64,000 bases of DNA from Escherichia coli (lineage in GTDB: Bacteria; Pseudomonadota; Gammaproteobacteria; Enterobacterales; Enterobacteriaceae): assembly GCF_022846255.1 (NCBI RefSeq), contig NZ_AP025682.1. One strand, written 5' to 3'. Under the pieces are notes generated by a model. The model was not told where the DNA came from, made no database searches, and saw only the letters and a program-made list of their open reading frames with translations. Shown here piece by piece: positions 10,429 to 61,202 of the stretch (positions within the stretch are counted from its first letter, which is position 1; every line of letters begins with the position of its first letter). Made by a program: the position numbers and the translations under genes.

Positions 10429-11730
10429 TTATTTTAATGGACTAATATCACTATTATTATCGCTATCTGTGATTTTTTCCCCATTCACGGAGATCATTCC
10501 CTGGATATATGAATCCCATAGATGTACGTCACCTTTATGAAAAATAATGCATGACATTGCGATTTTTTGTACTTTATATATCTGTTTATAGTATTCTTCT
10601 GAGTTTAATGGTGTATCTTTCAAGCTTTCATTCCTTGCTGGAAGAATCTTGACGGGACAGATAAAATCTGTATCCCCGAGTGAAAAGACATTAACTCCGG
10701 TTATAAAAAAGATACCCGGAATGTCTTGATGCAATCTCGTATTCCAGACTTGAGGATTAAACAGTTTATATGAATATTTATTTACATCTATATAATATTG
10801 ATGAGGACGCCAATCACTGATACCCGACATACTCATCGTCATATTGATAATTATATCAGGAATAGGTTTGAATAATACACTTAGAATGAACAATATGGCA
10901 GGAGGGAGTATTGCGATAGATAGCAAAGAGTTCAACCCTTCTTCTTGTTTTTCTTCTTGCTCATTTATCACTATCACACCTGGCAACATTCCTAAAAAGA
11001 TAAAAGCTAATGCAATGCAAGAAAATGATAGAAACTGTGATAAGATATCTGCACTCTCTTCAAGTCTGATCTTATTTGTCAAAAATAGCAGGGGGATAAT
11101 CTGAACAAGCCCGGGTAGAATTAAACATAAAGGAAGAGTGTATCTTATCCTGTTCCTGGGACGATATTGTTCGTGATTCTCGTGATTCTCGTGATTCTCG
11201 TGATTCTCGTGATTCTCGTGATTCTCAATGTTCTGTTCCCGAGGGGTATTTTTAGTGAATATTAATTTTTCTGAGAGGAAATATGAGACGAAATAATTAA
11301 ATAATACTATTAGTATTACTTCTGATATGGATGGATATAGAGTATTTTCTTCTGAAAAGGTAGACAGAACTGACTTTAGCACTAATGAAAAATAGAAAAC
11401 AACACTGTTCATATAGCAAATTATAGCAATTCTGTGCGCGATTCCTTTGTGATTTTTATAATAGTCTTTATGCCATGTATATGTATACACCAATACATGA
11501 GAAGATATAAAAATCAGTGAGGTTAGAGCCATTAGAGATAAAAGGATAAATATAAAGATAACACTTAAATAAAACTTTATGTCTATTGAGTCGAAAAACA
11601 AATCAAGTCTACCGAGTCCTTGCAGATAGAACCATATTGCAGATATGGCGCATCCTGTACTAAATACAGAAGACGTTAACATGGCGAGAAAAGCTTTATT
11701 ATTTAAATGTGAAAAGATAGATCTATTCAT
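10429..11730 (-). CDS. hypothetical multi-pass membrane protein with internal (ENH)6 repeat and ~130-aa C-terminal soluble domain
   Basis: ~433-aa ORF (ATG 11730; track start GTG 11739); ~7-8 hydrophobic helices; His-rich loop NIENHENHENHENHENHENHEQ encoded by a 9-bp tandem repeat; AT-rich codon usage. Confidence 0.55.
   Translation of the reverse strand: MNRSIFSHLNNKAFLAMLTSSVFSTGCAISAIWFYLQGLGRLDLFFDSIDIKFYLSVIFIFILLSLMALTSLIFISSHVLVYTYTWHKDYYKNHKGIAHRIAIICYMNSVVFYFSLVLKSVLSTFSEENTLYPSISEVILIVLFNYFVSYFLSEKLIFTKNTPREQNIENHENHENHENHENHENHEQYRPRNRIRYTLPLCLILPGLVQIIPLLFLTNKIRLEESADILSQFLSFSCIALAFIFLGMLPGVIVINEQEEKQEEGLNSLLSIAILPPAILFILSVLFKPIPDIIINMTMSMSGISDWRPHQYYIDVNKYSYKLFNPQVWNTRLHQDIPGIFFITGVNVFSLGDTDFICPVKILPARNESLKDTPLNSEEYYKQIYKVQKIAMSCIIFHKGDVHLWDSYIQGMISVNGEKITDSDNNSDISPLK
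11171..11226. repeat. 9-bp tandem repeat (TCGTGATTC)x6 inside the membrane-protein CDS
   Basis: Six perfect tandem copies seen directly; unit is 3 codons, so copy-number change is frame-preserving. Confidence 0.9.
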
Positions 11731-11945
11731 TATAAGCACATCATATTCTGTTGAGTATATGTCGATTTTATAATGTCATGTTCATGCAGATAATATCATA
11801 AGTAACATTAGTTGAACAAGAACAGAGTTGTAACAGATAAAGATCTCGTTGTTAGTTACATGATCTGATAAATGTTAGCATGAAATAGTAACTATATGAA
11901 GGATATAAGAACCTGTATCATAATGTCATATGCGTTATATCTGAT

Positions 11946-12707
11946 TCAGATATATTTTAATTTTGCTGATAGTTCTCGACATGCTTCAAGAACCAAAGTG
12001 GAATAATATTCTACTTTTTCTTTTGGCATTTGAATTTCCACACCACTAATGCTGATAGCAGCAATTGCTTCTCGAGCCTGATTAAACACCGGGGCGGCAA
12101 TGCAATAAATTCCTGGTGAATCTTCTGCGTTATCAAAAGCCCATCCTCGCTCACGAATACGTGCAAACTCTAGTATTAGATCAGATTTCCGAGTGATTGT
12201 CGTTTGCGTAAATCGAGGCAATGCCTCCTCAGGTAGTAAAGTGTCAATGACGTCTTGAGGTAACCATGCGCATAACGCTTTCCCCACCCCTGAGCTATGG
12301 AGTGGCAGCTTCTTACCTACCCACGTTCTGATACCAATTGGTTGAGTGCTTTCGAGTTTTAAGATATAGATTGGAGCGACTTCCTCAAGAATGCCTAAAT
12401 GGCAGATAAGATCAGTACTATCTCTCAGTTTTTCCAGCACCGGTCTCGCTACCTTACTTATGTCAAACTGTTCTAGCGAGCGATTTCCCCATTCATATAA
12501 TTTCAGTCCAAGGAAAAAACGCCCCCTTTCCTGACGTAACAAATGGTGTTCGACCAGAGCATTCAGTAAAGATGATGTGCTGCTTTTAGGCAGAGCCAGA
12601 TCTTGCTGGATTTGACTGAATGTGGCACCAGGAGAGTTGAAAAGATAATTGCAGATTCTGACTGTTTTATCGAGTGCTGGTACTGGTGTTCTTGTTTGAT
12701 TATTCAT
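11946..12707 (-). CDS. IclR-family transcriptional regulator
   Basis: 253-aa ORF; N-terminal HTH and C-terminal IclR effector domain pattern (GxxxLxxxDxxxxxxGWAxDxEExxxGxxCxAAPVF); divergent from the DapA-like operon. Confidence 0.85.
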   Translation of the reverse strand: MNNQTRTPVPALDKTVRICNYLFNSPGATFSQIQQDLALPKSSTSSLLNALVEHHLLRQERGRFFLGLKLYEWGNRSLEQFDISKVARPVLEKLRDSTDLICHLGILEEVAPIYILKLESTQPIGIRTWVGKKLPLHSSGVGKALCAWLPQDVIDTLLPEEALPRFTQTTITRKSDLILEFARIRERGWAFDNAEDSPGIYCIAAPVFNQAREAIAAISISGVEIQMPKEKVEYYSTLVLEACRELSAKLKYI

Positions 12708-13204
12708 AAAAAAATAACATATGATTTCTTACCAATGCTAAATAGTATACCCCAATCTTTATTAATGCATAGTGATGCTTAATCATTATGTTGCAGTTGA
12801 TCGACACAGGGGGACAAGAGTAGTTGTGTCACTGCCACATCACCCGGCATGCGATTTCACATCGGGATGTTCGAGAAGCATCAATGCTGCGCCCAAGATC
12901 CACCGAAAAGAAACGTGGGAATCACCGGCGGTGGGATTCATTGTCTATGCCCGTGTAGATTAGTGTGGATTTGCTGCACAGATGGTTCCGGTCTGAGAAA
13001 TGGGTAAATTCGTCGTTTACGACGGGAAGCTGCCTACACATGTTATACATCGTCTTCGTGTATCAACATGCTCCTATAAACTCGACTCAACTCACATTTT
13101 TCATTTCACATTGTAAAAACCTTTGACATGCAGAACCTTATTCTGATTCATTATATTCAACATGAAGAACTTTTGTTCCATATACAGAACTTAGTGAGAG
13201 CGAT

Positions 13205-14104
13205 ATGTTGACAGCGTTTAGAGGTATTTTTCCGCCGGTTCCTACTATTGTTGACGCACAGGGGAAACTGGATAAGACGGGTATGGCCCGAATGATTGAC
13301 CATGTAATAGAGAATGGTGCAAACGGAATGCTGATCCTAGGCAGTGGGGGCGAATTCTCACAATTTTCTTCCCAACAACGAAAAGAGATAGCAGCATTTT
13401 GTTTAAATCATGTAGATGGAAGAGTGCCTGTACTGGTGGGGGTTGCTTGTGCCGGGACAGCAGAAACTATTGAGCTGGGACGCCATGCTTATGAGCACGG
13501 AGCTGATGGTGTGCTGGTTGTTAATCCGTATTATGCAAAACTCAGCGATGATGCCCGGTTTATGCATTATAAATCTATTGCTGATACACTTGAAATCCCG
13601 GTGTTTCTCTATAACTTTCCTGATTTAACCGGCCAGGATATTGGACTTGAAGTCATTACCCGGCTGGCCCGGGAAGTTCCTAATATCGTGGGTATCAAAG
13701 ATACAATCGATAACATCAGTCATACCCGAGAAATTATCAACCGTGTACATTCATTTCGTCCGGATTTCATTATATTCAGTGGTTATGACGAATATATGCT
13801 GGACACTCTGTTACTGGGTGGTCATGGCGGTATTCCGGCAACATTCAATTTTGCTCCGGAAATCACACGGGGTATTTATCAGGCTGTTATGGAAAATGAT
13901 CTTGATAAGGCGCGTTATTTCCAACAACAACTGGCAAAATTGTCTCCGTTGTATGCGCTTGAGCAACCTTTCTTTGGGGTGATAAAGACCGCCATCAAAC
14001 TGAGTGGACTGGACATATCTACTGCAGTTATGGCACCGGCTCTTCCGCTCAGTGATGAGAAAATATCCAGAGTAAAATCCATTCTGGAACAAATTCATCA
14101 GTAA
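13205..14104 (+). CDS. DapA/NAL-family class I aldolase/dehydratase (2-keto-3-deoxy sugar acid type)
   Basis: 299-aa ORF; GSGGEFSQ and NFPDLTGQD...VGIKDT motifs; ~50% identical by eye to the YjhH-like ORF at 29909-30814. Confidence 0.85.
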   Translation: MLTAFRGIFPPVPTIVDAQGKLDKTGMARMIDHVIENGANGMLILGSGGEFSQFSSQQRKEIAAFCLNHVDGRVPVLVGVACAGTAETIELGRHAYEHGADGVLVVNPYYAKLSDDARFMHYKSIADTLEIPVFLYNFPDLTGQDIGLEVITRLAREVPNIVGIKDTIDNISHTREIINRVHSFRPDFIIFSGYDEYMLDTLLLGGHGGIPATFNFAPEITRGIYQAVMENDLDKARYFQQQLAKLSPLYALEQPFFGVIKTAIKLSGLDISTAVMAPALPLSDEKISRVKSILEQIHQ

Positions 14105-14120
14105 TCACGAGGGACGCAGG

Positions 14121-15638
14121 ATGAATAACTCTCAGGTACTCAAACTCAATAATCTGGATGATGTTGTGATTGCCATAACAGAGCTTCCTGCCGGAAGCTG
14201 GTTGAAGGCAGAAAATATCGAAACGCGTGACCTTATTCCGGCCGGACACAAAATTGCTCTTCGTGATATTCCTGCTGGTAGTGCGGTTAAGCGCTATGGA
14301 CAAATTATCGGCTTTGCCACTCGTGATATCCGCCAGGGGGAACATATTCATGTTCATAATCTCGGTATGGGAAATTTTGAACGTGATTATGCCTGGGGAA
14401 TAGACAGCCATCTTCCTGAGCGGGATGTCCATCAGGATACTTTTATGGGGATCAGAAGAAAAGACGGGCGAGTGGCAACCCGTAATTTTATCGGTGTGCT
14501 GAGTTCGGTGAACTGTAGCGCAACCGTGGTCAGAGCCATTGAGGATCATTTCCGTACCCGAGGCCTGAGCGATTACCCGAATGTTGATGGTATTGTCGCA
14601 TTGCCTCAGAGCTTCGGCTGCGCCTTTGGCTCTAATACTGAAATGATGAAAGTCATGCGGAGAACGATAGCAGGCTATGCCACTCACGTAAACTTTGCCG
14701 GGATTGTGATAGTGGGACTGGGATGTGAATCATTCCAGATTAAGGACATGATGAATGCCCATGGACTACATGAAAACCCGATGTTTCATACACTGACAAT
14801 TCAGGAAAGTGGCGGAACACGCAACGCTATCGAAAAGGGTATTTCGTTTATTCTTGATATGCTGCCGGAAGCCAACAATGTTAAACGTGAACCTGTTCCA
14901 GTGTCAGAAATTATCCTGGCCCTTGAGTGTGGTGGCTCAGACAGTTACTCAGGAATTTCTGCCAACCCGGCACTCGGTTATGCAGTTGATCGTCTGGTCC
15001 GTCAGGGAGGGACGGCCATTCTGTCCGAAACATCAGAAATCTACGGAGCTGAGCATCTTCTGACACGCCGTGCTATTAATCGTGAAGTGGGAGAAAAGCT
15101 AATCCGCAGGATTAAGTGGTGGGAGGAGTACTGTAAACGTACGGGTAGTGAAATGAATAACAATCCCTCCGCAGGTAATAAAGCGGGAGGGCTGACTACT
15201 GTTCTGGAGAAATCACTGGGTGGAATCGCTAAAGCCGGGACAACCAGCTTAATGGATGTGTATGAATATGCTGAACCTGTAACAGCAAAAGGGCTTGTCT
15301 TTATGGATACCCCCGGGTACGACCCGATGGCGGTAACTGGGCAAATTGCCGGAGGCGCTAATCTACTGTGTTTTACCACGGGTAGGGGATCTGCCTTTGG
15401 AGCAAAACCCACGCCTTGTCTGAAACTGGCGACCAATAATGCATTATGGCAACGACAGCGTGATGACATGGATTTAAACTGTGGCACGATCGTTGATGGT
15501 GAAGAAACGATTGAACAGGTAGGGGAACGTATTTATCAGAGAATTATTGAGCTGGCTTCAGGTAACCGTAGCCGAAGTGAAGAACTTGGGTATGGGAGTC
15601 TGGAATTTGTTCCTTGGATAATGAACTCAATAATGTAA
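14121..15638 (+). CDS. UxaA/GarD-family sugar-acid dehydratase (altronate/galactarate dehydratase-like)
   Basis: 505-aa ORF; SD GAGGGA; N-terminal SAF-like region and C-terminal dehydratase region typical of this family (recalled). Confidence 0.75.
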   Translation: MNNSQVLKLNNLDDVVIAITELPAGSWLKAENIETRDLIPAGHKIALRDIPAGSAVKRYGQIIGFATRDIRQGEHIHVHNLGMGNFERDYAWGIDSHLPERDVHQDTFMGIRRKDGRVATRNFIGVLSSVNCSATVVRAIEDHFRTRGLSDYPNVDGIVALPQSFGCAFGSNTEMMKVMRRTIAGYATHVNFAGIVIVGLGCESFQIKDMMNAHGLHENPMFHTLTIQESGGTRNAIEKGISFILDMLPEANNVKREPVPVSEIILALECGGSDSYSGISANPALGYAVDRLVRQGGTAILSETSEIYGAEHLLTRRAINREVGEKLIRRIKWWEEYCKRTGSEMNNNPSAGNKAGGLTTVLEKSLGGIAKAGTTSLMDVYEYAEPVTAKGLVFMDTPGYDPMAVTGQIAGGANLLCFTTGRGSAFGAKPTPCLKLATNNALWQRQRDDMDLNCGTIVDGEETIEQVGERIYQRIIELASGNRSRSEELGYGSLEFVPWIMNSIM

Positions 15639-36729: not shown

Positions 36730-37371
36730 TTACGCTTTCAAACCATACGTTTTGAATTTTTCAAGAACGATGGTCATTTCGGCTTCAGACAGAACGGGAA
36801 CATCGTGATGTAATCCGCCACATTTGATGTATAAATCAGCCAGCGTCTCAGTTTCACCCGCCAGCCACAACGTCTTTTCCAGCGTGACGTCCATGGCCAG
36901 CATACCGTGGTGCTGCATCAGCAAGGACTTACTTTCTCTGATTCCTTGAGATACACTGTCGGCCAGTTCAGGGCTGCCAAAGGTATAATAGGGAATACAG
37001 GGAATATGATCCGTCCCCGATACCGCCACCATATAATGAATAGCCGGAATTGAATGATTATGTATTGCCACCGCCGTGGAATTCACCGCATGCGTATGTA
37101 TGACAGCATTCAATTCTGGTCTGGCTTTATAACACGCCAGATGAAATAGCCATTCACTTGATGGTATTTTACCCGCTTCAGGTATTCCCTTATCGTCTAC
37201 AAAGACAATCATGTCCGGCGTCATCTTTGAATAAGCGATCCCACTCGGTGTAATCAACATGCCACCGGTATATCTGGCACTCACATTACCTGATGTTCCT
37301 TGATTCAGACCTGACGCATTCATTTCCCGACAAATGGAAATGATATTTTCTGCTAACTTAATCCTTTCCAT
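36730..37371 (-). CDS. class II aldolase/adducin-family protein (MtnB-like; DHAP-shunt aldolase candidate)
   Basis: 213-aa ORF; SD AAGGAG; class II aldolase metal-binding His pattern (HTHAVNSTAVAIHNH...). Confidence 0.8.
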   Translation of the reverse strand: MERIKLAENIISICREMNASGLNQGTSGNVSARYTGGMLITPSGIAYSKMTPDMIVFVDDKGIPEAGKIPSSEWLFHLACYKARPELNAVIHTHAVNSTAVAIHNHSIPAIHYMVAVSGTDHIPCIPYYTFGSPELADSVSQGIRESKSLLMQHHGMLAMDVTLEKTLWLAGETETLADLYIKCGGLHHDVPVLSEAEMTIVLEKFKTYGLKA

Positions 37372-50285: not shown

Positions 50286-51515
<1,230 letters not shown>

Positions 51516-52049: not shown

Positions 52050-53270
52050 TTAATCCATTCTGCCTCTTTCTTTTCCTGATAATGCAATAATAGAAGTCAG
52101 ACCTGACAAAATAATGATAAAAGATATTAATGCTAAAAGGATCCATGATTGAGACCAATTGCGAAAATACTCATAAATATATCCCATAAAGATAGGTCCA
52201 AGAGAAGCTAATGTATAACCAATACCCTGAACAATAACAGATATTCGCTTGTTATCGTCCAGGTTTGTGGATAATTTCATTATTAGAGTGAAAATTACAA
52301 CAAATCCGCCTCCTTGTGCTATCCCACCAGTAAAGCTCCAAATTATCCAAAAAGTGGGAAAAATTAATATCAGAGAAATAGAGACTATCCAACATCCACC
52401 CATAACAACCAGCAGATATTCATATTTAATATAACGTCCTAGTGCTGGGATAATCAGTGCTCCAGACAGGGCCAACCCCTGAAATATTGAGGCAATGACA
52501 CCAGCGCCTGAAGCGCTGATACCACTTACTGACATTAAATATGCTGGTAACCATGCAGTAATTCCGTAGTAAATGAATAAATGAGCAGCAAATCCAGCAC
52601 TCAGAGATGCAATGACGATTTTTTGCTGCACCGAAAAAAAATGCGAATATTTCTGCCGTGTTAAGGCATATCCTGGTGAGATACTGGTTACTTCTTTATT
52701 CTGTGATTGTGATATCTGCCATAGTAACAATGCCAGTACTGGTAACCATACCCAGCTAGCCAATGCAAATTGCCATCCCATTATGTGTGCAATTGGTGCT
52801 GTCATTGAACTGGTAATCATAGTTCCGATATTAAGAGAGGATGTATATATGCCCGTTACTACCCCCATTCGATGACGAAAATCGCGCCCGATGATCATTA
52901 AACTCACAATATTTCCTGTTGCCAGAGCAGCACCAAGTATAAATGTCCCAGCTAATATACCGATTTCACCAGTGTAGGGGCGCAATAAAATCCCAATACT
53001 GGCACCAATTAGCGTGATCCACATACTTTTGTTGATTCCGATTTTCGATATGACCACAGAAATGATCGGAGTTAGGGTTCCAAAACATAAGACAGGTATA
53101 CTGGTCAGCAGTCCAGTTAACGTAGCATTTAGCTTCAAATCATGCAGTAGTGGCTGTAGGACTGGAGGAACAGCTGTAAGTGGACTTCTTAGATTCATCC
53201 CCAGAACAATCAGGGCAAGCAAAAGCATTAATGTTTTGTTAACCTTAGTCAATAATTTCACGGGATTCAT
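52050..53270 (-). CDS. MFS transporter (CynX/NimT-like)
   Basis: 406-aa 12-TM ORF; divergent from a TetR gene. Confidence 0.75.
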   Translation of the reverse strand: MNPVKLLTKVNKTLMLLLALIVLGMNLRSPLTAVPPVLQPLLHDLKLNATLTGLLTSIPVLCFGTLTPIISVVISKIGINKSMWITLIGASIGILLRPYTGEIGILAGTFILGAALATGNIVSLMIIGRDFRHRMGVVTGIYTSSLNIGTMITSSMTAPIAHIMGWQFALASWVWLPVLALLLWQISQSQNKEVTSISPGYALTRQKYSHFFSVQQKIVIASLSAGFAAHLFIYYGITAWLPAYLMSVSGISASGAGVIASIFQGLALSGALIIPALGRYIKYEYLLVVMGGCWIVSISLILIFPTFWIIWSFTGGIAQGGGFVVIFTLIMKLSTNLDDNKRISVIVQGIGYTLASLGPIFMGYIYEYFRNWSQSWILLALISFIIILSGLTSIIALSGKERGRMD

Positions 53271-53385: not shown

Positions 53386-54036
53386 ATGAGCAACCAAGAC
53401 AATGTAATGCCGGCAAGAAAAAAGCGCAGTCCTAGCCTGATGAAAACCAAAAAAACACGCGAGTCAATCATCAAAGCAGGGATGGAGGTGTTTATTGAGC
53501 ATGGCTTTGCTGACGCAAAAGTAAGCGAAATCAGCAAAAAAGCAGGAGTCGCTAAAGGGACTGTCTATAACTACTTTCAGACCAAAGAAAGCCTTTTTGA
53601 AAGTGTTTTACGAGAATTTATTGTTGCTGCACCAATGGAACTAAGATCTGAGCCTCGAAAGCATGGGGAAAGTATAAAGCAATATCTGCAGCGCGTGCTT
53701 TTACCTGTAATAAAAACTCTTGAATCATCAGGTCGTGCTCAGATTGCCAGATTAGTAATAACTGAAAGTGCCCGTTTTCCAGTATTGGCTAAAGCATATC
53801 TACAGGAAGTCCACCAGCCTCTCATTGATAGTTTGAAAATTTTATTAGAGGCTGCCTTTAAGGAAGGCGAACTCAAAAATAATAAACTAGCCCTTTATCC
53901 ACATATATTATTGTCCCCGAACTGGCTAGGTATTGTCCACAACGGAATGCTTGACCCATCAAATCCACTTAATATAGGGGAGTTATTTGAGGTTGGACTG
54001 GATCTCTTTTTTGATTCAGTTAATGAACAATTGTAG
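53386..54036 (+). CDS. TetR/AcrR-family transcriptional regulator
   Basis: 216-aa ORF; SD AGAGGA; N-terminal TetR HTH (...FADAKVSEISKKAGVAKGTVYNYFQTKESL). Confidence 0.8.
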   Translation: MSNQDNVMPARKKRSPSLMKTKKTRESIIKAGMEVFIEHGFADAKVSEISKKAGVAKGTVYNYFQTKESLFESVLREFIVAAPMELRSEPRKHGESIKQYLQRVLLPVIKTLESSGRAQIARLVITESARFPVLAKAYLQEVHQPLIDSLKILLEAAFKEGELKNNKLALYPHILLSPNWLGIVHNGMLDPSNPLNIGELFEVGLDLFFDSVNEQL

Positions 54037-54609
54037 AGAGAATGGGTATTGTATTCAATTAGTTTAGGAGCTTAAGCTATCGGGGGTAATGCTGATTTAT
54101 TGGCAGTTGTGTACGTATTAGCGCTGCTTTTGCCGTAATACCCAGTAGTTCTTTCCAGCATAACTACAACTGAATGATACCAAAAATACATCTCAAGCTT
54201 TTTATCTTAGTCTTTCTATGATGACAATATTGAAAACTTCAGGATAATTAAAAGGTTAGTATTAATGAAAGTCCTTACATTTAAGCATCTTCTCTCTAAA
54301 CATATTTTCCTTAGAATCGGGGGCCTCAGTATTTAAAATCTTCCAGAGGTGTAATATTCAGCTTTGCTGTGACAACATCGAGAATGGTAAAAATTGATAA
54401 TATATCCTCTGAATATCAGGATGACTACGTTATAATGTATATGAGTTGGATTTGATTAGTTTCAAGGAAAGTGAAATGTGTGAAATAAGTACCAGACCAG
54501 TAGAACAGTAATTAAATACCGGAAAGCAAAGGGGGGAGGGGCGTGCTGACTGCATCTAAAATGAGACTATTACGCCCAGACATAGAGGGAAATAGCCAGT
54601 AGAGTACTT

Positions 54610-55386
54610 TTATTTGTTGGGGGGGGCCTGCTGATCCGTTTCACCAGTTGAGTTTGCAGCTGGAAGTTCTTTTGTCTTTGCTGTATCAATTGATTTGATT
54701 TGTTCGATGGCAGTTATATTACCTGACATTGCTTCATTGAGCACTTCTACTGCCCTACGGGCATCACGATCCTTGATCGACATGTAGACCTTGATATGAG
54801 CTTCCACACTCTCTAGGGTGATACCTAGCGCACGGTTAAGCTCTTCAAGATAGTAGTAATAGATGTCTTTAATCGAGTTCATCACGTTATAGAACACGCT
54901 GTTGTGTGATGCTCTGACTATTGCCAGATGGAACTCGTAATCCGCTTCCGAATACTTTTTGTAGTCCCCCTTATTGATCAACATATTATTCAGAGCTTCT
55001 TCGAGCTGGCGAATGTCGTCGTCGGTGGCGTGAGTGACAGCGAGTTCCACGCATTTGAACTCCACGGTCTGACGGAAAATCATCATATCGTGAAACTCTT
55101 CGCGGCTAAGGTGCATGATAGGACGTGGATCGTTACTCAACATTTGCGGGGTGAAGTTTGTGCTCACGTAGCTGCCACAGCCCTGACGTGTCACAACAAT
55201 CCCCAAGGTGCGAAAGCGCTGAACCGCACTACGTACACTGACCCGGCTTACATTAAATGAGTTGGCCAGCTCTAATTCTGAGGGCAAACGGCTACCTGGT
55301 GGCCAGCTGCCGTCCAGCAGTTTTCCACTTATTTGATCATAAACTTCATTTACAACATTCTGTTTCTGAATGGATTTTATGCTCAA
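54610..55386 (-). CDS. GntR/FadR-family transcriptional regulator
   Basis: 258-aa ORF (TTG start per track; exact start uncertain); wHTH pattern (PPGSRLPSELELANSFNVSRVSVRSAVQ) plus FCD-type C-terminal domain. Confidence 0.75.
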   Translation of the reverse strand: MSIKSIQKQNVVNEVYDQISGKLLDGSWPPGSRLPSELELANSFNVSRVSVRSAVQRFRTLGIVVTRQGCGSYVSTNFTPQMLSNDPRPIMHLSREEFHDMMIFRQTVEFKCVELAVTHATDDDIRQLEEALNNMLINKGDYKKYSEADYEFHLAIVRASHNSVFYNVMNSIKDIYYYYLEELNRALGITLESVEAHIKVYMSIKDRDARRAVEVLNEAMSGNITAIEQIKSIDTAKTKELPAANSTGETDQQAPPNK

Positions 55387-55464
55387 GATGGGGTCCGAAG
55401 TCAGTTTAGATAAGCCAATAATATATCATCTTTAAAATCAAAGCGCCCAAGTGGGCGCCCTATA

Positions 55465-56751
55465 TTAACAAGTTTGTGCTTTTGCTTCAGTGGATTTTTT
55501 AGTGCTAAACGAGGTGAGTGAGGTGAGCAACACTGCCACAACCAGCGAAGCACTCATAAAGACATAAGAAGCACCTGGATCGCCCGTTAATCCATTCAGA
55601 TAACCGACAATCCATGAACCAACGAATGAGCCCAGAGCACCGAAACTTACGATAAATGCCATCGCACCAGCCATCACATTACGAGGGATAATTTCTGGTA
55701 TTGCGGCAAAGAATGGTCCGTAAGGTGTATACATCGCGCCACCTGCAACCATCAACAGGATATACGAGAGCCAAAAGTTGGATTCTCCAACGGTAAACGA
55801 ACCAATAAAGCAGAACGCACCCAATCCTAAAAACAGAAGAACAATGATTTTACGGTTCATAAATTTATCTGAATACCAAGACGCGCCGAGCATAAGTGAT
55901 ACAGCTAATAAGTAGGGTGCTGCTGATAGCCAACCTATTGCTACGATGCTTAATTCAGATGCTGATTTCAAAATAGACGGTAGCCACATAATAAATCCAT
56001 ACATCCCAATATTCCAGAAGAAGTGGATAAATGAGAGTGATAAGACTTTGCCTGAACGAAATGCTTCGCTGTAGTTTTTAATTTCTTTAATATTGGTTTG
56101 CTCTGCCGCAAGTGCCGCTTCTATATCTTTTTTTTCGTGCTCTGTTAACCAGGTTGCATCTGTGGGGCGATCAACAAAGACAAACCACCAGATAACTGCC
56201 CAAATGATGGCAGGGATGCCTTCGATAATAAACATACCACGCCAGCCAAAGGAGTCCACGAGATAGCCTGATAGCACTGACATCCAGAGTACTGTTATGG
56301 GGTTGCCAAGAAAAAGGAAGGTGTTAGCTTTCGACCTTTCTTTCTTAGTGAACCAATGGCTCAGGAAAACAAGCATGGCAGGCATCACAACGCTTTCAGC
56401 CACGCCGAGTAAGAAGCGAATGACCGCTAGGACCTTAACGTCGTGGACCATGCCGGTCGCTGTCGCTAGTATTCCCCACAGAATTAAGCTCCAAAAAATA
56501 AGCTTCTTGGCACTTCTTTTTTCAGCATAAATCCCTCCAGGTACCTGAAAGAAAAAATATCCAAGGAAGAACAGTGCACCCAGTAGTGAGGAAATCCCTG
56601 GTGTAATATTGAGATCCTCAGCCAGACCGGAGGCAGCACCAAAGCCATAATTAGCGCGATCAAGATAGGCAAGGCTATACGTAATAAATGCCAGCGGGAT
56701 CAACTTACGCCAGCGAATCGGCGCTAATTTTTTATGTATATTCTGAACCAT
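55465..56751 (-). CDS. MFS transporter (ACS/hexuronate-aldonate type)
   Basis: 428-aa ORF with LDRANYGFGA N-terminal MFS signature. Confidence 0.85.
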   Translation of the reverse strand: MVQNIHKKLAPIRWRKLIPLAFITYSLAYLDRANYGFGAASGLAEDLNITPGISSLLGALFFLGYFFFQVPGGIYAEKRSAKKLIFWSLILWGILATATGMVHDVKVLAVIRFLLGVAESVVMPAMLVFLSHWFTKKERSKANTFLFLGNPITVLWMSVLSGYLVDSFGWRGMFIIEGIPAIIWAVIWWFVFVDRPTDATWLTEHEKKDIEAALAAEQTNIKEIKNYSEAFRSGKVLSLSFIHFFWNIGMYGFIMWLPSILKSASELSIVAIGWLSAAPYLLAVSLMLGASWYSDKFMNRKIIVLLFLGLGAFCFIGSFTVGESNFWLSYILLMVAGGAMYTPYGPFFAAIPEIIPRNVMAGAMAFIVSFGALGSFVGSWIVGYLNGLTGDPGASYVFMSASLVVAVLLTSLTSFSTKKSTEAKAQTC

Positions 56752-56806
56752 GATGTTTTCCCATTTAATTACTGCAGTTCGTATAACGAATGTCAGTAGA
56801 TGTTAA

Positions 56807-57574
56807 TTACAGCACCGCGAGCCACCCACCATCAACGTAAATAATTTGTCCATTGATATAATCTGATGCTTTGGATGATAAGAAGATGGCAGTTCCGATG
56901 AGTTCCTCTGGATGTCCCCAACGTTGGGACGGGTTGCTGTTTTTCACCCAAGAATCGAAGTGTTTGTCTTCGATAAGCGCAGTGTTCATGTCGGTGAGAA
57001 TGTAGCCCGGTCCAATGGCATTGGTCTGAATATTAAACTGTGCCCATTCTGCGGCCATTGAACAGGTAAGCATTTTGATGCCGCCTTTTGCTGCCGTGTA
57101 TGGAGCAACTGTTGGACGTGCGGCCTGGCTAGTGAGTGAACCGATATTAATGATTTTGCCACCGCGTTTATGGTCAATCATCCGCTTTGCCGCCGCGCGG
57201 GACACGAGAAATGCACTAGTTAAGTTCGTGTCGATCACCTTCTGCCAGTTTTCCAACTCCAGTTCAACCATCGGTTTGCGGTACTGAATACCAGCGTTAT
57301 TAATCAGGATATCAATACTGATCCCTTGCGCATCAAGTTGACTAAAAGCTGATTCAATCGCTTGTTCATTGGTGACGTCAAAAGCCACACCGTGCGCATC
57401 GTAACCCTTGCTTGTCAGAGACTTTACTGCTTCTGCCAGCAACGTGTCGCGAATATCATTCAGGATGACTCGAGCACCCGCAACGGCAAGTCCCTCTGCA
57501 TAGGCAAGGCCCAGTCCACGTGCTGCACCTGTTACCAACGCCGTTTTCCCCGTTAAATCAAATAAAGCGTTCAT
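56807..57574 (-). CDS. SDR-family oxidoreductase (gluconate 5-dehydrogenase / KduD-like)
   Basis: 255-aa ORF; SD GAGGA; TGAARGLG cofactor motif and YxxxK catalytic motif (YTAAK). Confidence 0.85.
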   Translation of the reverse strand: MNALFDLTGKTALVTGAARGLGLAYAEGLAVAGARVILNDIRDTLLAEAVKSLTSKGYDAHGVAFDVTNEQAIESAFSQLDAQGISIDILINNAGIQYRKPMVELELENWQKVIDTNLTSAFLVSRAAAKRMIDHKRGGKIINIGSLTSQAARPTVAPYTAAKGGIKMLTCSMAAEWAQFNIQTNAIGPGYILTDMNTALIEDKHFDSWVKNSNPSQRWGHPEELIGTAIFLSSKASDYINGQIIYVDGGWLAVL

Positions 57575-57595
57575 ATTGTTTCCTCATGCATTTGT

Positions 57596-57625
57596 GTTGT
57601 ATGACAACTACCTTTTAAAAGGTAG
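57596..57625. promoter_or_regulatory. GTTGT-N3-ACAAC palindrome plus adjacent 18-bp perfect palindrome CTACCTTTTAAAAGGTAG (candidate GntR operator)
   Basis: Seen directly 22-50 bp upstream of the SDR start; second copy of the GTTGTAnGACAAC motif at 57829-57841. Confidence 0.35.
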
Positions 57626-57828
57626 GGGGTTCGCTACGACAAAAGCAACAATGTGCCCATGAATTTGCAACATGGATCACAAATAGCTTTGTGCAATGAT
57701 TGATGGTCTTATTTAATTTATTGAATTATATGGTGTAATATTTATATTGATGAGCATGGTTTGATCACTGTCACAGAATGGCGTTCGCAACGATCACTTG
57801 CAAATGAAGCGTGATATAACAATGTTGG

Positions 57829-57841
57829 TTGTAGGACAACC
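57829..57841. promoter_or_regulatory. second GTTGT-N3-ACAAC palindrome (candidate GntR operator)
   Basis: GTTGTAGGACAAC ~70 bp upstream of the ManD-like start; overlapping TGTAGG/CCTACA palindrome. Confidence 0.35.
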
Positions 57842-57909
57842 TACATGTTGTGTTGTTCATAACGATATGGATATGGCATACGAGAAAATTACTGAGCTGA
57901 GGTGTAAAA

Positions 57910-59163
57910 GTGAGTAGCCTGAAAATAACTAACGTGAAGACGATTCTGACGGCACCAGGCGGCATTGATTTAGCGGTCGTGAAAGTCGAGACCAACGAGC
58001 CAGGACTATACGGGTTGGGATGTGCAACATTTACTCAGCGTATCTTTGCAGTAAAAAGCGCAATCGATGAATACATGGCACCTTTCCTGATTGGGAAAGA
58101 TCCTACTCGTATTGAAGATATCTGGCAGTCGGGTGCGGTGAGTGGCTACTGGCGTAGTGGTCCCATTATGAACAATGCGTTGTCTGGTGTGGACATGGCA
58201 CTGTGGGATATCAAAGGTAAACTGGCGGGGATGCCGGTTTATGACTTGCTGGGTGGCAAATGCCGTGATGGTATCCCACTATACTGTCATACCGACGGTA
58301 GCGATGAAGTTGAAGTAGAAGATAACATCCGTGCCAGAATGGAAGAGGGTTACCAGTATGTTCGCTGCCAGATGGGCATGTACGGCGGCGCGGGGACTGA
58401 TGACCTTAAACTGATCGCTACGCAGTTGGCGCGAGCGAAGAACATTCAGCCGAAGCGTTCGCCCCGCAGCAAAACGCCCGGTATCTACTTTGATCCGGAT
58501 GCCTACGCCAAAAGCGTTCCACGTTTGTTTGATCACCTGCGTAACAAGCTGGGATTTGGCATTGAATTTATTCATGATGTGCACGAGCGTGTCACCCCTG
58601 TGACCGCTGTTAACCTGGCTAAAACGCTCGAACAATATCAGCTGTTTTATCTTGAAGATCCGGTGGCACCTGAAAACATCGACTGGTTGAAAATGCTGCG
58701 TCAGCAGTCTTCCACTCCGATATCCATGGGTGAACTGTTTGTAAATGTGAATGAGTGGAAACCGCTCATCGACAATAAACTCATCGACTACATTCGCTGC
58801 CACGTGAGTACTATTGGTGGCATTACACCGGCGAAAAAACTTGCGGTCTACAGCGAGTTGAACGGTGTGCGAACCGCATGGCATGGGCCGGGCGATATTT
58901 CTCCGGTCGGGGTCTGCGCTAATATGCATCTGGACTTGAGTTCACCGAACTTTGGTATTCAGGAATACACGCCAATGAACGACGCGCTGCGTGATGTATT
59001 TCCGGGCTGCCCTGAGATTGACCGCGGTTATGCCTATCTGAACGAGAAGCCGGGTCTGGGGATTGAGATTGATGAAGCTAAAGCGGCAAAATACCCGTGT
59101 GAGGGTGGGATACCGTCGTGGACGATGGCGCGTACACCTGACGGTACTGCCTCAAGACCATAA
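57910..59163 (+). CDS. enolase-superfamily dehydratase, mannonate dehydratase (ManD)-like
   Basis: 417-aa ORF (GTG start, SD GAGGTG); ManD-subgroup pattern (DMALWDIKGKLAGMPVYDLLGG...YLEDP...GPGD). Confidence 0.8.
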   Translation: MSSLKITNVKTILTAPGGIDLAVVKVETNEPGLYGLGCATFTQRIFAVKSAIDEYMAPFLIGKDPTRIEDIWQSGAVSGYWRSGPIMNNALSGVDMALWDIKGKLAGMPVYDLLGGKCRDGIPLYCHTDGSDEVEVEDNIRARMEEGYQYVRCQMGMYGGAGTDDLKLIATQLARAKNIQPKRSPRSKTPGIYFDPDAYAKSVPRLFDHLRNKLGFGIEFIHDVHERVTPVTAVNLAKTLEQYQLFYLEDPVAPENIDWLKMLRQQSSTPISMGELFVNVNEWKPLIDNKLIDYIRCHVSTIGGITPAKKLAVYSELNGVRTAWHGPGDISPVGVCANMHLDLSSPNFGIQEYTPMNDALRDVFPGCPEIDRGYAYLNEKPGLGIEIDEAKAAKYPCEGGIPSWTMARTPDGTASRP

Positions 59164-59537
59164 GTAATGAAGGGCCCGGTTTGCAGTTGCCGGGTCTGTC
59201 TCCTGTTCCCAGAGTTTTATTTATCTTCATCACTTACAGAGAATGCTCAACATTTGCTAGTCTTTTCCTGTCCAGGTATCCAAAGTCTCCTCCCAAATAT
59301 CCTGGATACTGGCTTAGACAAAATGAGATTATATTTTATAGTAAATTATATCATAACAGCTTTTGTTAAGGATGCTGTGTAAGATAAGATATATGGGTTA
59401 GAGGCATATTCTTTTGCAATCAGGAAGAAGATAATCACTGATGTTATCGGATATGTAGTAGTATTCGGTATAGCTATTTAGAGAAATTTGTGCCACAATT
59501 TATTATAGAGTTTAAAGAAAAATATATTGAAAATAAA

Positions 59538-59560
59538 ATCCGGGCTATTGCCCGGATTTT
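59538..59560. terminator. bidirectional rho-independent terminator
   Basis: Stem ATCCGGGC / GCCCGGAT, loop TATT, A/T runs on both sides; immediately 3' of the integrase stop. Confidence 0.65.
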
Positions 59561-59561
59561 A

Positions 59562-60824
59562 TTATTTTAATGGATTATTAATCTTTGCATATTCAAATGG
59601 ACTGATAAATCTTTCTCTATTTGCATCCAGAAAATCGGCCCACCATTGTAGCATCAGTCGACGTTCTTCCAGATGTTCTGCTTTATGAATGTAAGCAGCA
59701 CGTACACCATTACGCTCCTGATGGCTCATCTGACGTTCCACAGCATCGCGGGACCACAAACCTGATTCAATCAATGCACTGCACGCCATCGCCCGGAATC
59801 CATGGCCACAGACTTCCTGGGTTGTGTCATATCCCATAACCCTCAGGGCTTTATTTACGGTATTTTCGCTGATTGGTTTACGTGGGTCATGTGCCCCCGT
59901 AAAGATCAGACCATTTTCACCAGCCCATGTCTGAAGTTCTGTCAGTATGGCTACAGCCTGTTTGCTGAGTGGCACAAGATGTGGTGTTCGCATCTTGGAG
60001 CCTCGGTGTGAGAATTTTACGCCTGGCAGAGGTTCGCGTTCGGCTGGAATAGTCCACATGGCATTGTCAATATCAATTTCAGACCAGCGGGCATATCTGA
60101 GTTCACTGGAACGAATAAAAACCAGTAAATTCAGCATAACTGCCCGTCGGGTGACAGGCTGGCCTTTATAACCGCCAATACGCGACAGAAGTTCAGGCAG
60201 ACGTGAAAGATCCAGAGCTGGGCGATGCTGGCGTTTTACCGTAGTCAATGCACCAGCCATATCCAGAGCCGGGTTATATCTGATGATGCCAGACTGTACG
60301 GCATAACGCATTACAGCAGATATTCTTTGCTGCAGACGACTGGCGATTTCATAAATTTGTTTAGCTTCTGCAGCACGAACAGGGATAAGCAGGTCCGGGG
60401 TACTGAGTGTTGTGATATCCCGGTTGCCGATAAAGGGGAATACGTGTGTCTCGAGGCTTTTGAGTACTTTATCGCTGTGTGATTGTGCCCATTGTTTATT
60501 ACTGGCATGCCAGCGTCGTGCAATATGTTCAAAAGAGAGCTGTAAATCAGGGACTACTTTTTTAGCTCTTTTCTGTTCGCAAGGGTCAATCCCCTCCGAA
60601 ATCAGTTTTCGGGCCTCATCCCGTTTTGTACGAGCTTCGGAGAGAGAAACTTCTGGATACACACCAAGTGCCAGAGTCTTCTCCTTACCCAGAATACGAT
60701 AACGGAGACGCCAGTAACGGGAACCATTAGGATGAACCAGCAGGAACATGCCGGCCCCGTCAGTGAGTTTATAAGCCTTGTCAGTGGGCTTTGCAGCCCG
60801 GATTTTTGCGTCAGTCAGCGCCAT
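59562..60824 (-). CDS. int: P4-type tyrosine integrase adjacent to tRNA-Phe
   Basis: 420-aa ORF; SD AAGG; P4-family N-terminus (MALTDAKIRAAKPTDKAYKLTDGAGMFLLVHPNGSRYWRLRY) and C-terminal catalytic region; tRNA upstream on the same strand. Confidence 0.9.
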   Translation of the reverse strand: MALTDAKIRAAKPTDKAYKLTDGAGMFLLVHPNGSRYWRLRYRILGKEKTLALGVYPEVSLSEARTKRDEARKLISEGIDPCEQKRAKKVVPDLQLSFEHIARRWHASNKQWAQSHSDKVLKSLETHVFPFIGNRDITTLSTPDLLIPVRAAEAKQIYEIASRLQQRISAVMRYAVQSGIIRYNPALDMAGALTTVKRQHRPALDLSRLPELLSRIGGYKGQPVTRRAVMLNLLVFIRSSELRYARWSEIDIDNAMWTIPAEREPLPGVKFSHRGSKMRTPHLVPLSKQAVAILTELQTWAGENGLIFTGAHDPRKPISENTVNKALRVMGYDTTQEVCGHGFRAMACSALIESGLWSRDAVERQMSHQERNGVRAAYIHKAEHLEERRLMLQWWADFLDANRERFISPFEYAKINNPLK

Positions 60825-60978
60825 AGTTCAGCCTTCTGAATGCGTTAAAGAGGGTACAAATTCTGTCGAACTGGGGTATACCCGCAATTATACCCACACA
60901 ATGGGGTTGATGTGGGGGGAATCTGGTTGAGTTCGGTAGAATTGATTTGTAGGTAGAACGCTTAAATTGTGGCGTTCT

Positions 60979-61010
60979 GAAACGAAAAACGGACCTCCGT
61001 GGAGGTCCGT
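60979..61010 (-). terminator. rho-independent terminator 3' of tRNA-Phe
   Basis: Minus strand: stem CGGACCT / AGGTCCG followed by TTTTTCGTTTC, 11 nt after the tRNA 3' end. Confidence 0.6.
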
Positions 61011-61021
61011 TGATATGAATT

Positions 61022-61097
61022 TGGTGCCCGGACTCGGAATCGAACCAAGGACACGGGGATTTTCAATCCCCTGCTCTACCGACTGAGCTATCCGGGC
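61022..61097 (-). tRNA. pheV: tRNA-Phe (anticodon GAA)
   Basis: Reverse complement reads GCCCGGATAGCTCAGTCGGTAGAGCAGGGGATTGAAAATCCCCGTGTCCTTGGTTCGATTCCGAGTCCGGGCACCA, the E. coli tRNA-Phe sequence incl. CCA; pheV copy inferred from flanking yqgA-speC. Confidence 0.95.
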
Positions 61098-61202
61098 AAC
61101 GGGGCGCATTAAACCTGATTCGCCTCGTCTCGTCAATCAAATTTCTTCAATTTAGTGCAGACTGCACAATCTATCATCACTTTGCCGCTATTGCACGCAT
61201 TG

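Follow-up and report, generated by a model that had tools for sequence, protein, structure and literature searches.

Two candidate operators for a FadR-subfamily regulator in a mobile hexonate module of Escherichia coli

Introduction

Regulators of the FadR subfamily of the GntR family recognise operators made of inverted TKGT/ACMA boxes with a GT-to-AC spacing of 3 nt, a definition that covers DgoR, ExuR, FadR, LldR and PdhR (PMC4494728); weaker adjacent half-sites, 7-12 nt from the centre, have already been described for GntR-family motifs (PMC4494728). Members of the subfamily that respond to sugar acids, such as DgoR, are repressors released by their substrate (PMC11705089, PMC7674646). 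Here we describe what is likely to be a further pair of such operators, in a 64-kb stretch of Escherichia coli DNA (contig NZ_AP025682.1 of assembly GCF_022846255.1; the whole stretch is called the window below). It carries a small sugar-acid module next to an island integrase: genes for a GntR-type regulator, a major facilitator superfamily (MFS) transporter and a short-chain dehydrogenase/reductase (SDR), divergent from a gene for a ManD-like dehydratase. The two motifs lie in the intergenic region shared by the SDR and ManD genes.

Two E. coli systems come close to this locus in their regulators or operators. In DgoR the metal residues are D146, H150 and H195 (PMC7674646), and the inverted repeat IR1, which has been experimentally characterised, reads ATTGTAGTACAAC (PMC11705089). 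For ExuR, a site predicted at exuT reads AAAGTTGTATGACAAGTTA (PMC4494728 supplement, RegPrecise predictions). Among gene clusters, the nearest is SEN1432-SEN1436 of Salmonella Enteritidis: SEN1432-1435 form the ROD13 island (PMC3282883), SEN1435, the orthologue of the SDR studied here, is annotated as a gluconate 5-dehydrogenase (PMC5428311), and SEN1436 is a putative D-gluconate dehydratase (PMC6458216). In glucose-rich egg white, expression of SEN1433-5 rises together with that of the divergent SEN1436, by 5- to 33-fold (PMC5428311).

The pathway system taken for comparison is the L-idonate/5-ketogluconate module, analogous to E. coli idnDOTR. The Salmonella cluster is said, in work by Wichelecki et al. 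that appeared in Biochemistry in 2014, to be a cryptic L-idonate pathway with a low-efficiency D-gluconate dehydratase. No description of the operator or its regulator, the SEN1432-6 cluster included, turned up in a literature search on the operator sequences, the SEN locus tags and ROD13, and the helix-turn-helix of the regulator is not among the examined entries of the Suvorova 2015 site table.

Results

Two exact motifs between the divergent arms

The window contains just two exact matches to GTTGTNNNACAAC, namely GTTGTATGACAAC (site 1, or O1) and GTTGTAGGACAAC (site 2, or O2, at 57828-57840). Shuffled sequences give a mean of 0.05 matches, and none of 100 shuffles reaches two; with one mismatch allowed, only one further, unrelated match appears in the window. 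Both sites fall within the 335-bp SDR|ManD intergenic region, one toward each arm: the end of site 1 is 21 nt from the ATG of the SDR gene, and the end of site 2 is 69 nt from the GTG of the ManD gene. An earlier note on this DNA, made from the letters alone, had claimed a GTTGT-N3-ACAAC palindrome for each of two divergent arms, with the regulator, MFS and SDR genes on one side and the ManD-like dehydratase on the other; all four open reading frames (ORFs) lie where it placed them, and the two palindromes are exact and the sole two in 64 kb. It had also seen in them a GntR-family operator pattern. Both sites read TTGT-N3-ACAA, which fits inverted TKGT/ACMA boxes with GT and AC 3 nt apart, the FadR-subfamily geometry of PMC4494728.

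A third exact copy of the site 1 core, TGTATGACA, occurs at 37097-37105, inside an ORF on the minus strand (36730-37371), without supporting context, and is probably due to chance. The count of three cores in the window, against 0.9 expected, is not significant by itself.

A motif that follows the regulator through rearranged loci

Twenty-five regulator orthologues (58-91% identity) were aligned, and the alignment was used to fetch 76 loci from species-representative genomes; the gene content of these was mapped by tblastn, and 32 SDR|ManD intergenic regions were aligned. In about 60 of the 76 loci, ManD, SDR, a transporter and usually IdnD accompany the regulator, and three gene orders occur. 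The loci come from Enterobacterales, Orbaceae (Gilliamella), Pseudomonas and Paenibacillus/Peribacillus.

The earlier note had held that it would be refuted if homologous intergenic regions did not have the motifs; these are present in all 32 of the regions aligned. The strongest conserved blocks there are TGTATGAC at site 1, invariant in 32 of 32, and TGTA(G/T)GAC at site 2, which appears as TGTAGGAC in 30. Unsupervised 8-mer counting arrives at the same elements: GTCCTACA, GTAGGACA and GTCATACA rank first upstream of ManD, SDR and the regulator gene (upstream of ManD, GTCCTACA is found in 53 of 65 loci and GTAGGACA in 41), and the most widely shared de novo 8-mers are parts of TGTAGGACA, the core of site 2, or of TGTATGACA. 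Sites with at most two mismatches from the 13-mer occur at 3.7 per kb in the intergenic gaps of the module, as against 0.44 per kb elsewhere in the loci.

Exact TGTA(G/T)GACA cores number 130 in the module spans. None lies within recognised coding sequence, and nearly all are found no more than about 130 nt upstream of a module gene. The ManD-proximal TGTAGGACA cores stand at a median of 38 nt before the start codon and the SDR-proximal cores at a median of 53 nt (41 and 24 cores are nearest ManD and SDR), while 34 cores precede the regulator gene itself by a median of 19 nt. In 45 cases the motif immediately precedes the gene of the regulator itself; cores so near the regulator start, in most gene arrangements other than that of the window, indicate autoregulation there. 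In Serratia, Rahnella and Hafnia the window-type MFS gene forms a separate unit with two operator cores of its own, and in Paenibacillus and Peribacillus the motif is upstream of both the regulator gene and ManD. Through all three rearranged orders the motif stays with the genes, and its presence in Paenibacillus and Peribacillus as well fits a co-encoded regulator rather than a host-specific factor. Overall, it behaves as the operator of a small regulon would. Since the motif is linked to the cognate regulator, in Firmicutes too and upstream of the regulator's own gene, this protein is the primary candidate for binding it.

Related sites were seen in two other settings. Some Enterobacterales carry a paralogous regulator (69-71% identical; loci L025, L026, L028, L030 and L031), divergent from SDR alone or from other genes, and its intergenic region has the same TGTATGACA and TGTAGGACA cores, so that the motif appears to serve a sister regulon as well. 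The ManD leader of many relatives contains GGTATGACAT, which agrees with the core at eight of nine positions and stands about 25-45 nt ahead of the start codon; possibly it is a weak third site, and its counterpart in the window, at 57869-57879, is GGATATGGCAT.

Anatomy of the operators

A matrix built from 117 distinct sites reads AAC(T/A)-TGTA(G/T)GACA-(A/T)C(A/T)TACA. At -1 and at 11, its outer positions, C predominates, and the G...C symmetry there does not extend to the sites in general. Perfect 5+5 arms are found at site 1 in two of the 32 loci and at site 2 in 13, and full two-fold symmetry does not hold across them. The perfect 13-mer was accordingly given up as the conserved unit, on the basis of the matrix and the 32 loci, and replaced by an asymmetric 9-mer core, TGTA(G/T)GACA, plus flanks. 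Many sites have an extra TACA half-site at +13 to +16, at a distance of about 9-10 nt from the centre; the matrix shows it as enriched, and in O2 it occupies 57842-57845. It corresponds to the weaker adjacent half-sites of GntR-family motifs (PMC4494728).

The earlier note had also pointed to an 18-bp perfect palindrome in this intergenic region. It is indeed present (CTACCTTTTAAAAGGTAG, Table 1), but it is neither conserved nor statistically unusual. All nine pairs, like the perfect symmetry of site 1, are limited to the window and its 99%-identical E. coli twin (two of 32 SDR|ManD regions), and the mean across the 32 loci is 3.9 of nine pairs. The window has two perfect 18-bp palindromes, the other being CTCTGGATATATCCAGAG at 9084-9101; shuffled sequences contain 0.3 on average, and one or more occur in 28% of them. 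As a functional element it was rejected, being perfect only in the window and its twin and having a chance expectation that is not small; it is probably lineage-specific and non-functional.

The regulator and its own transcription unit

The regulator combines a GntR winged helix-turn-helix (wHTH; PF00392, 57 bits against a cutoff of 27, residues 13-74) with an FCD domain, an all-helical C-terminal effector and oligomerisation domain (PF07729, 80 bits against 24, residues 101-219). Its top NCBIfam models are NanR, LldR and PdhR, at about 97 bits, and it stays under every equivalog cutoff, with best scores of 52-98 bits against 189-442 (NanR, LldR, PdhR, UxuR, ExuR, GlcC, FadR). Since it scores below the cutoffs of all the named groups, it is taken to represent an unnamed orthologous group.

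Residues D149, H153 and H197 align with the metal triad of DgoR and are invariant in the 25 orthologues, as is R105, which aligns with DgoR effector/metal residues; given this triad and R105, release by a metal-bound sugar acid would be the natural model. In the wHTH, V46, S47, R48, S50, R52, A54, Q56 and R59 are invariant in the same 25 proteins, alongside an invariant DNA core.

A terminator-like hairpin in the MFS|regulator gap and an extended -10-like element precede the regulator gene (Table 1). The hairpin stem is kept, with variable loops, in seven of seven loci of the same gene order; a consensus terminator scan did not flag it. In two relatives (L003 and L015) the operator core TGTATGACG abuts a -10 of the TGATATATT type. 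With a conserved hairpin and an extended -10 in front of it, the regulator gene would be partly a transcription unit of its own, probably expressed from its own promoter plus read-through. In the window it seems not to be directly autoregulated, direct autoregulation having been lost.

Promoter context, CRP-like sites and operator spacing

On the ManD side, GTGATATAAC forms a conserved block directly upstream of O2 in the 32-locus alignment, and TGATATAA is among the top shared 8-mers. Given this extended -10 just upstream of O2, ManD transcription is predicted to start at about 57827-57829, the left edge of the operator. On the minus strand, starts are predicted at about 57608-57612 for the SDR arm and at about 55413 for the regulator gene. 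A sigma-70 consensus scan gave no helpful result for the intergenic region apart from a single AT-rich match that is not conserved, and its total count was at shuffle level. Where the genes are ordered differently, a terminator and the ManD start flank the ManD-proximal site, or else the site closely follows a TTGCAT-N17-TGnTTATTT promoter; taken together, the other arrangements have their sites within the core promoter, downstream of it, or 14-40 nt ahead of a start codon. To judge from these positions, the operators in all arrangements fit a repressor.

Between the operators are two CRP-like sites, which the earlier note does not mention. They were scored against TGTGA-N6-TCACA, the motif that in a class I-like promoter would be centred about 60 bp or more upstream of the start; the chance of a match at 7 or more of the 10 positions in the interval searched is 0.09 per locus. 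On the SDR side all 32 loci have such a match, beginning 66-68 nt away from the O1 core; on the ManD side 30 of the 32 have one, with its first position 69-79 nt ahead of the O2 core.

The cores of O1 and O2 are 230-234 bp apart in 24 of 32 loci, with intergenic lengths of 319-414 bp and the extra length in the ManD leader; in the window the two sites are 232 bp apart. Helical phasing of the distance was considered and dropped, being non-significant once duplicate distances were collapsed (Rayleigh p ~0.1). The near-constant spacing could reflect a fixed back-to-back promoter cassette, or a repression loop joining both promoters.

Module genes and island setting

Table 1. Features of the hexonate module and its surroundings in the 64-kb window.
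Feature	Coordinates	Strand	Basis
FadR-subfamily GntR regulator (wHTH + FCD), 258 aa, TTG start	54610..55386	-	Pfam/NCBIfam profiles
Extended -10-like element TGATATATT upstream of the regulator gene	55420..55428	-	conserved with same gene order
Terminator-like hairpin GCGCCC-ACTT-GGGCGC (55443-55458), then TTTGATTTT, in the MFS|regulator gap	55434..55458	-	7 loci
MFS transporter, anion:cation symporter (ACS) type, D-galactonate transporter subfamily	55465..56751	-	Pfam MFS_1; TIGR00893
SDR oxidoreductase resembling gluconate 5-dehydrogenase / 5-keto-D-gluconate reductase	56807..57574	-	NF005983
Operator O1 GTTGTATGACAAC (predicted), core TGTATGACA at 57598-57606, SDR-operon side	57596..57608	+	conservation
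18-bp perfect palindrome CTACCTTTTAAAAGGTAG	57608..57625		all 9 pairs only in the window and L001
CRP-like site 1 TGCAACATGGATCACA, 8/10 consensus positions, SDR promoter side	57666..57681		32/32 loci
CRP-like site 2 TTTGATCACTGTCACA, 9/10 consensus positions, ManD promoter side	57760..57775		30/32 loci
Extended -10-like element TGATATAAC, ManD promoter	57812..57820	+	conserved block in 32-locus alignment
Operator O2 GTTGTAGGACAAC (predicted), core TGTAGGACA at 57830-57838, plus TACA half-site, ManD side	57828..57845	+	conservation
ManD-subgroup MR_MLE enolase-superfamily dehydratase, GTG start	57910..59163	+	PDB match; SEN1436 orthologue
P4-type tyrosine integrase of the island	59562..60824	-	Arm-DNA-bind_3, Phage_int_M, Phage_integrase domains
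tRNA-Phe (pheV locus), island insertion site	61022..61097	-	ARAGORN

In profile searches the MFS transporter matches Pfam MFS_1 and scores 241 bits to TIGR00893, under the model cutoff. The top NCBIfam model for the SDR is gluconate 5-dehydrogenase (NF005983), at 300 bits against a cutoff of 408. The dehydratase matches PDB 3TW9/3TWA/3TWB over its full length at 961 bits, and the NCBIfam ManD equivalog at 406 bits (cutoff 550). No IdnD homologue was found among the window genes, either in the ORF listing or in the tblastn map.

The flank past the tRNA-Phe gene is yqgA-speC, 99.9% identical to E. coli chromosomes, which places the window island at pheV. Among 5,426 complete E. coli genomes, a near-identical module (99.5% identity) occurs in one, strain CH4784; the same integrase is beside it there, but the tRNA-Phe locus is the other one, pheU, near yjdC/dicD-dsbD-cutA. 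The block common to the two (window 54022-61145; 7622-14746 of the CH4784 locus, L001) measures 7.1 kb at 98.8% identity, and consists of the tRNA-Phe end, the integrase, ManD, SDR-MFS-regulator and about 590 nt of non-coding DNA. An att direct repeat of the tRNA-Phe 3' end was sought at the left edge of this block; no repeat of at least 12 nt was found.

Six E. coli plasmids carry an 86%-identical version of the module with idnD and a different ACS-family transporter. In this plasmid variant (L002, 3812-6233) IdnD scores 577 bits against a cutoff of 469, and IdnD is found in about 45 related loci. Across loci L002, L005-L008, L011, L013, L046 and others, the module takes two forms. Pectobacterium, Raoultella, Symbiopectobacterium and Silvania have the short one, with SDR, the window-type MFS transporter and the regulator and without IdnD. 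In the long one IdnD is present and the MFS transporter is a different member of the ACS family; Superficieibacter (L013) has the window-type MFS transporter and IdnD together.

Two overlapping minus-strand ORFs at 50296-51509 look like orfA/orfB of an IS3-family transposase. Beside them are a TetR regulator (53386-54036, plus strand) and a divergent CynX/NimT-type MFS transporter (52050-53270, minus strand); all of these are island cargo unrelated to the sugar-acid module.

Discussion

Comparison with DgoR, ExuR/UxuR and the Salmonella cluster

The E. coli DgoR system resembles this one in several respects: the wHTH plus FCD architecture and the conserved Asp/His/His metal triad of the regulator; an IR1 that shares half-site and spacing with O2 and is identical to it at 11 of 13 positions; operators that overlap a sugar-acid-inducible promoter (here from sequence prediction); and a cargo of an ACS-type MFS transporter and an enolase-superfamily aldonate dehydratase. 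It differs in that the regulators are only distantly similar (58 bits, E 8e-15), and in that DgoR has two close inverted repeats (IR1/IR2) at a single dgo promoter, whereas the sites here are 232 bp apart and serve two divergent promoters. dgoR is the first gene of its operon, whereas the window regulator gene is the last of its arm, and the centre of the core, an asymmetric A-K-G here, is A-G-T in DgoR.

ExuR and UxuR share with the island regulator a similar recognition helix and a metabolic context in which 2-keto-3-deoxygluconate is formed from hexonate. The exuT site has the same 11-bp core as O1, TTGTATGACAA, and the same asymmetric ATG centre. However, the window regulator reaches only 53-60 bits on their NCBIfam models, against cutoffs of about 400, and the ExuR motif is a 19-bp one with AAA/TTT flanks that tolerates TGGT/ACCA, whereas the 9-mer core described here is essentially invariant and has different flanks.

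The SEN1432-SEN1436 cluster has an orthologous gene set in the same divergent layout, and SEN1436 is the nearest relative of the window dehydratase with a solved structure (3TW9). The window variant differs from it in lacking IdnD and in having a different ACS-family MFS transporter.

Operators of a module-encoded repressor

It is very likely that the two motifs are operators of the module-encoded FadR-subfamily regulator, which would repress both divergent promoters. Coordinated repression of both arms by the GntR regulator had been the central proposal of the earlier note, and it is supported by the conservation of the motif, by the repressor-type positions of the sites and by the Salmonella arms, whose co-induction fits coordinated control. 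The proposal that regulator, MFS and SDR make up one arm fares less evenly: the gene order bears it out, but the regulator gene probably has a promoter of its own behind the terminator-like hairpin.

The mechanism that we infer, from binding and the sign of regulation to the effector, the role of CRP and the substrates, would run as follows. A regulator dimer would bind each TTGT-N3-ACAA element, with its TGTA(G/T)GACA core. O2 would overlap the predicted ManD start, just downstream of the conserved extended -10, and O1 would lie between the SDR-MFS promoter and the SDR start codon; with both sites occupied, both divergent promoters would be repressed. A sugar-acid effector, acting through the Asp/His/His metal site of the FCD domain, would release the repressor, and the likeliest effector would be a substrate or intermediate of the pathway, e.g., 5-keto-D-gluconate, D-gluconate or L-idonate. 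The conserved CRP-like site about 70 bp from each operator suggests that expression may need both cAMP-CRP and inducer. As to the pathway, the MFS transporter would take up a hexonate, the SDR would convert 5-keto-D-gluconate to D-gluconate, and the ManD-family dehydratase would convert this to 2-keto-3-deoxygluconate; because IdnD is absent, the reduction of 5-keto-D-gluconate is read as the first enzymatic step. The module as a whole would be a short, IdnD-less variant of the SEN1432-6 hexonate module, on a 7.1-kb integrase cassette at tRNA-Phe.

Several points weigh against this reading, or against parts of it. The core is asymmetric, its invariant A4 and G6 being non-complementary, which one would not usually expect of a palindrome bound by a simple dimer. 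The window regulator gene does not have the proximal operator core of some relatives; the core there is degraded. The -10 on the SDR side is weak and could not be placed confidently. Induction of the Salmonella cluster in glucose-rich egg white counts against strong CRP dependence (PMC5428311). Both the dehydratase and the SDR fall under their NCBIfam equivalog cutoffs, which makes their substrates uncertain. Finally, ExuR, UxuR and DgoR recognise nearly the same sequence, and the island regulator may not be the sole binder.

The last point is the basis of the alternative that survives best, although it seems quite unlikely: that O1 and O2 are bound mainly, or additionally, by the host's ExuR/UxuR, possibly also DgoR, and that the module is wired into the hexuronate/galactonate regulon. 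The 11-bp core TTGTATGACAA of the predicted exuT site AAAGTTGTATGACAAGTTA is that of O1 (PMC4494728), and a matrix of 48 predicted ExuR sites ranks O1 as the best site in the 64-kb window, at 13.8 bits, above one third of its own training sites; O2 comes fourth, at 10.9 bits. IR1 of DgoR, ATTGTAGTACAAC, differs from O2 at just two of 13 positions, and the recognition helix NVSRVSVRSA resembles the NVSRTVVREA of ExuR. However, the motif tracks the co-encoded regulator across phyla and stands upstream of that regulator's own gene in the 45 cases mentioned; compared with the degenerate ExuR motif, the 9-mer core varies far less; the A/T-rich flanks of ExuR sites (AAA...TTT) are unmatched, O1 agreeing at two of eight flank positions; and the ExuR sites used are themselves predictions. 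A related possibility, to which we give a low probability, is mutual: because the island operators have nearly the same sequence as those of ExuR/UxuR and DgoR, these proteins may cross-regulate the hexonate module, and its own regulator may reach host exuT, uxa or dgo sites.

The regulator might instead activate one or both of the promoters, or have a dual role there. Some FadR-family proteins, FadR included, activate certain promoters, and the weak -10 on the SDR side would be compatible with such a role here. Against it stand the location of O2 downstream of a conserved extended -10, the placement of sites elsewhere (14-40 nt before start codons, or in or downstream of the core promoter) and the behaviour of DgoR-like sugar-acid FadR members, which are substrate-released repressors (PMC11705089, PMC7674646); activation is thus highly improbable.

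Least probable of all, to the point of being barely credible, is that the palindromes act as RNA, with the 16-mer TGTAGGACAACCTACA as a leader hairpin or attenuator in the ManD 5' UTR (untranslated region), or that they are chance repeats in AT-rich DNA. A terminator scan did flag 57830-57845, where a T-rich stretch comes after a 6-bp hairpin, and the 16-mer keeps at least five of six pairs in 21 of 32 loci. However, only 1-3 of the six pairs are left in Rahnella, Serratia and Hafnia, where the 9-mer core is invariant; an attenuator at O2 was rejected on this ground, the stem not being kept where the core is. The motif is also found in either orientation with respect to the gene that it precedes, and upstream of the promoters of other genes, and chance is excluded by the shuffles, the densities per kb and the top-ranking de novo 8-mers given above.

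Implications

That the pair formed by the operators and the module-encoded regulator is an uncharacterised addition to the FadR-subfamily class, carried on a mobile hexonate module, is well supported by these sequence comparisons; its architecture would be a textbook one. Points of modest interest are the invariant asymmetric core, the near-constant 230-234 bp spacing and the possible cross-talk with ExuR, UxuR and DgoR. The near-identity of the operators to those of ExuR and DgoR would make this a convenient case for studying how a mobile module avoids or exploits cross-talk with resident regulators.

For a widespread FadR-type regulator, the analysis provides a testable regulon, with a 9-bp core operator, target promoters and candidate inducers. 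This regulator accompanies "low-efficiency" ManD-family dehydratases. With operator and effector known, such cryptic clusters could be switched on, showing what they metabolise in the hosts for which this is relevant: gut E. coli, Salmonella Enteritidis with its egg-white-induced ROD13, and plant-associated Enterobacterales.

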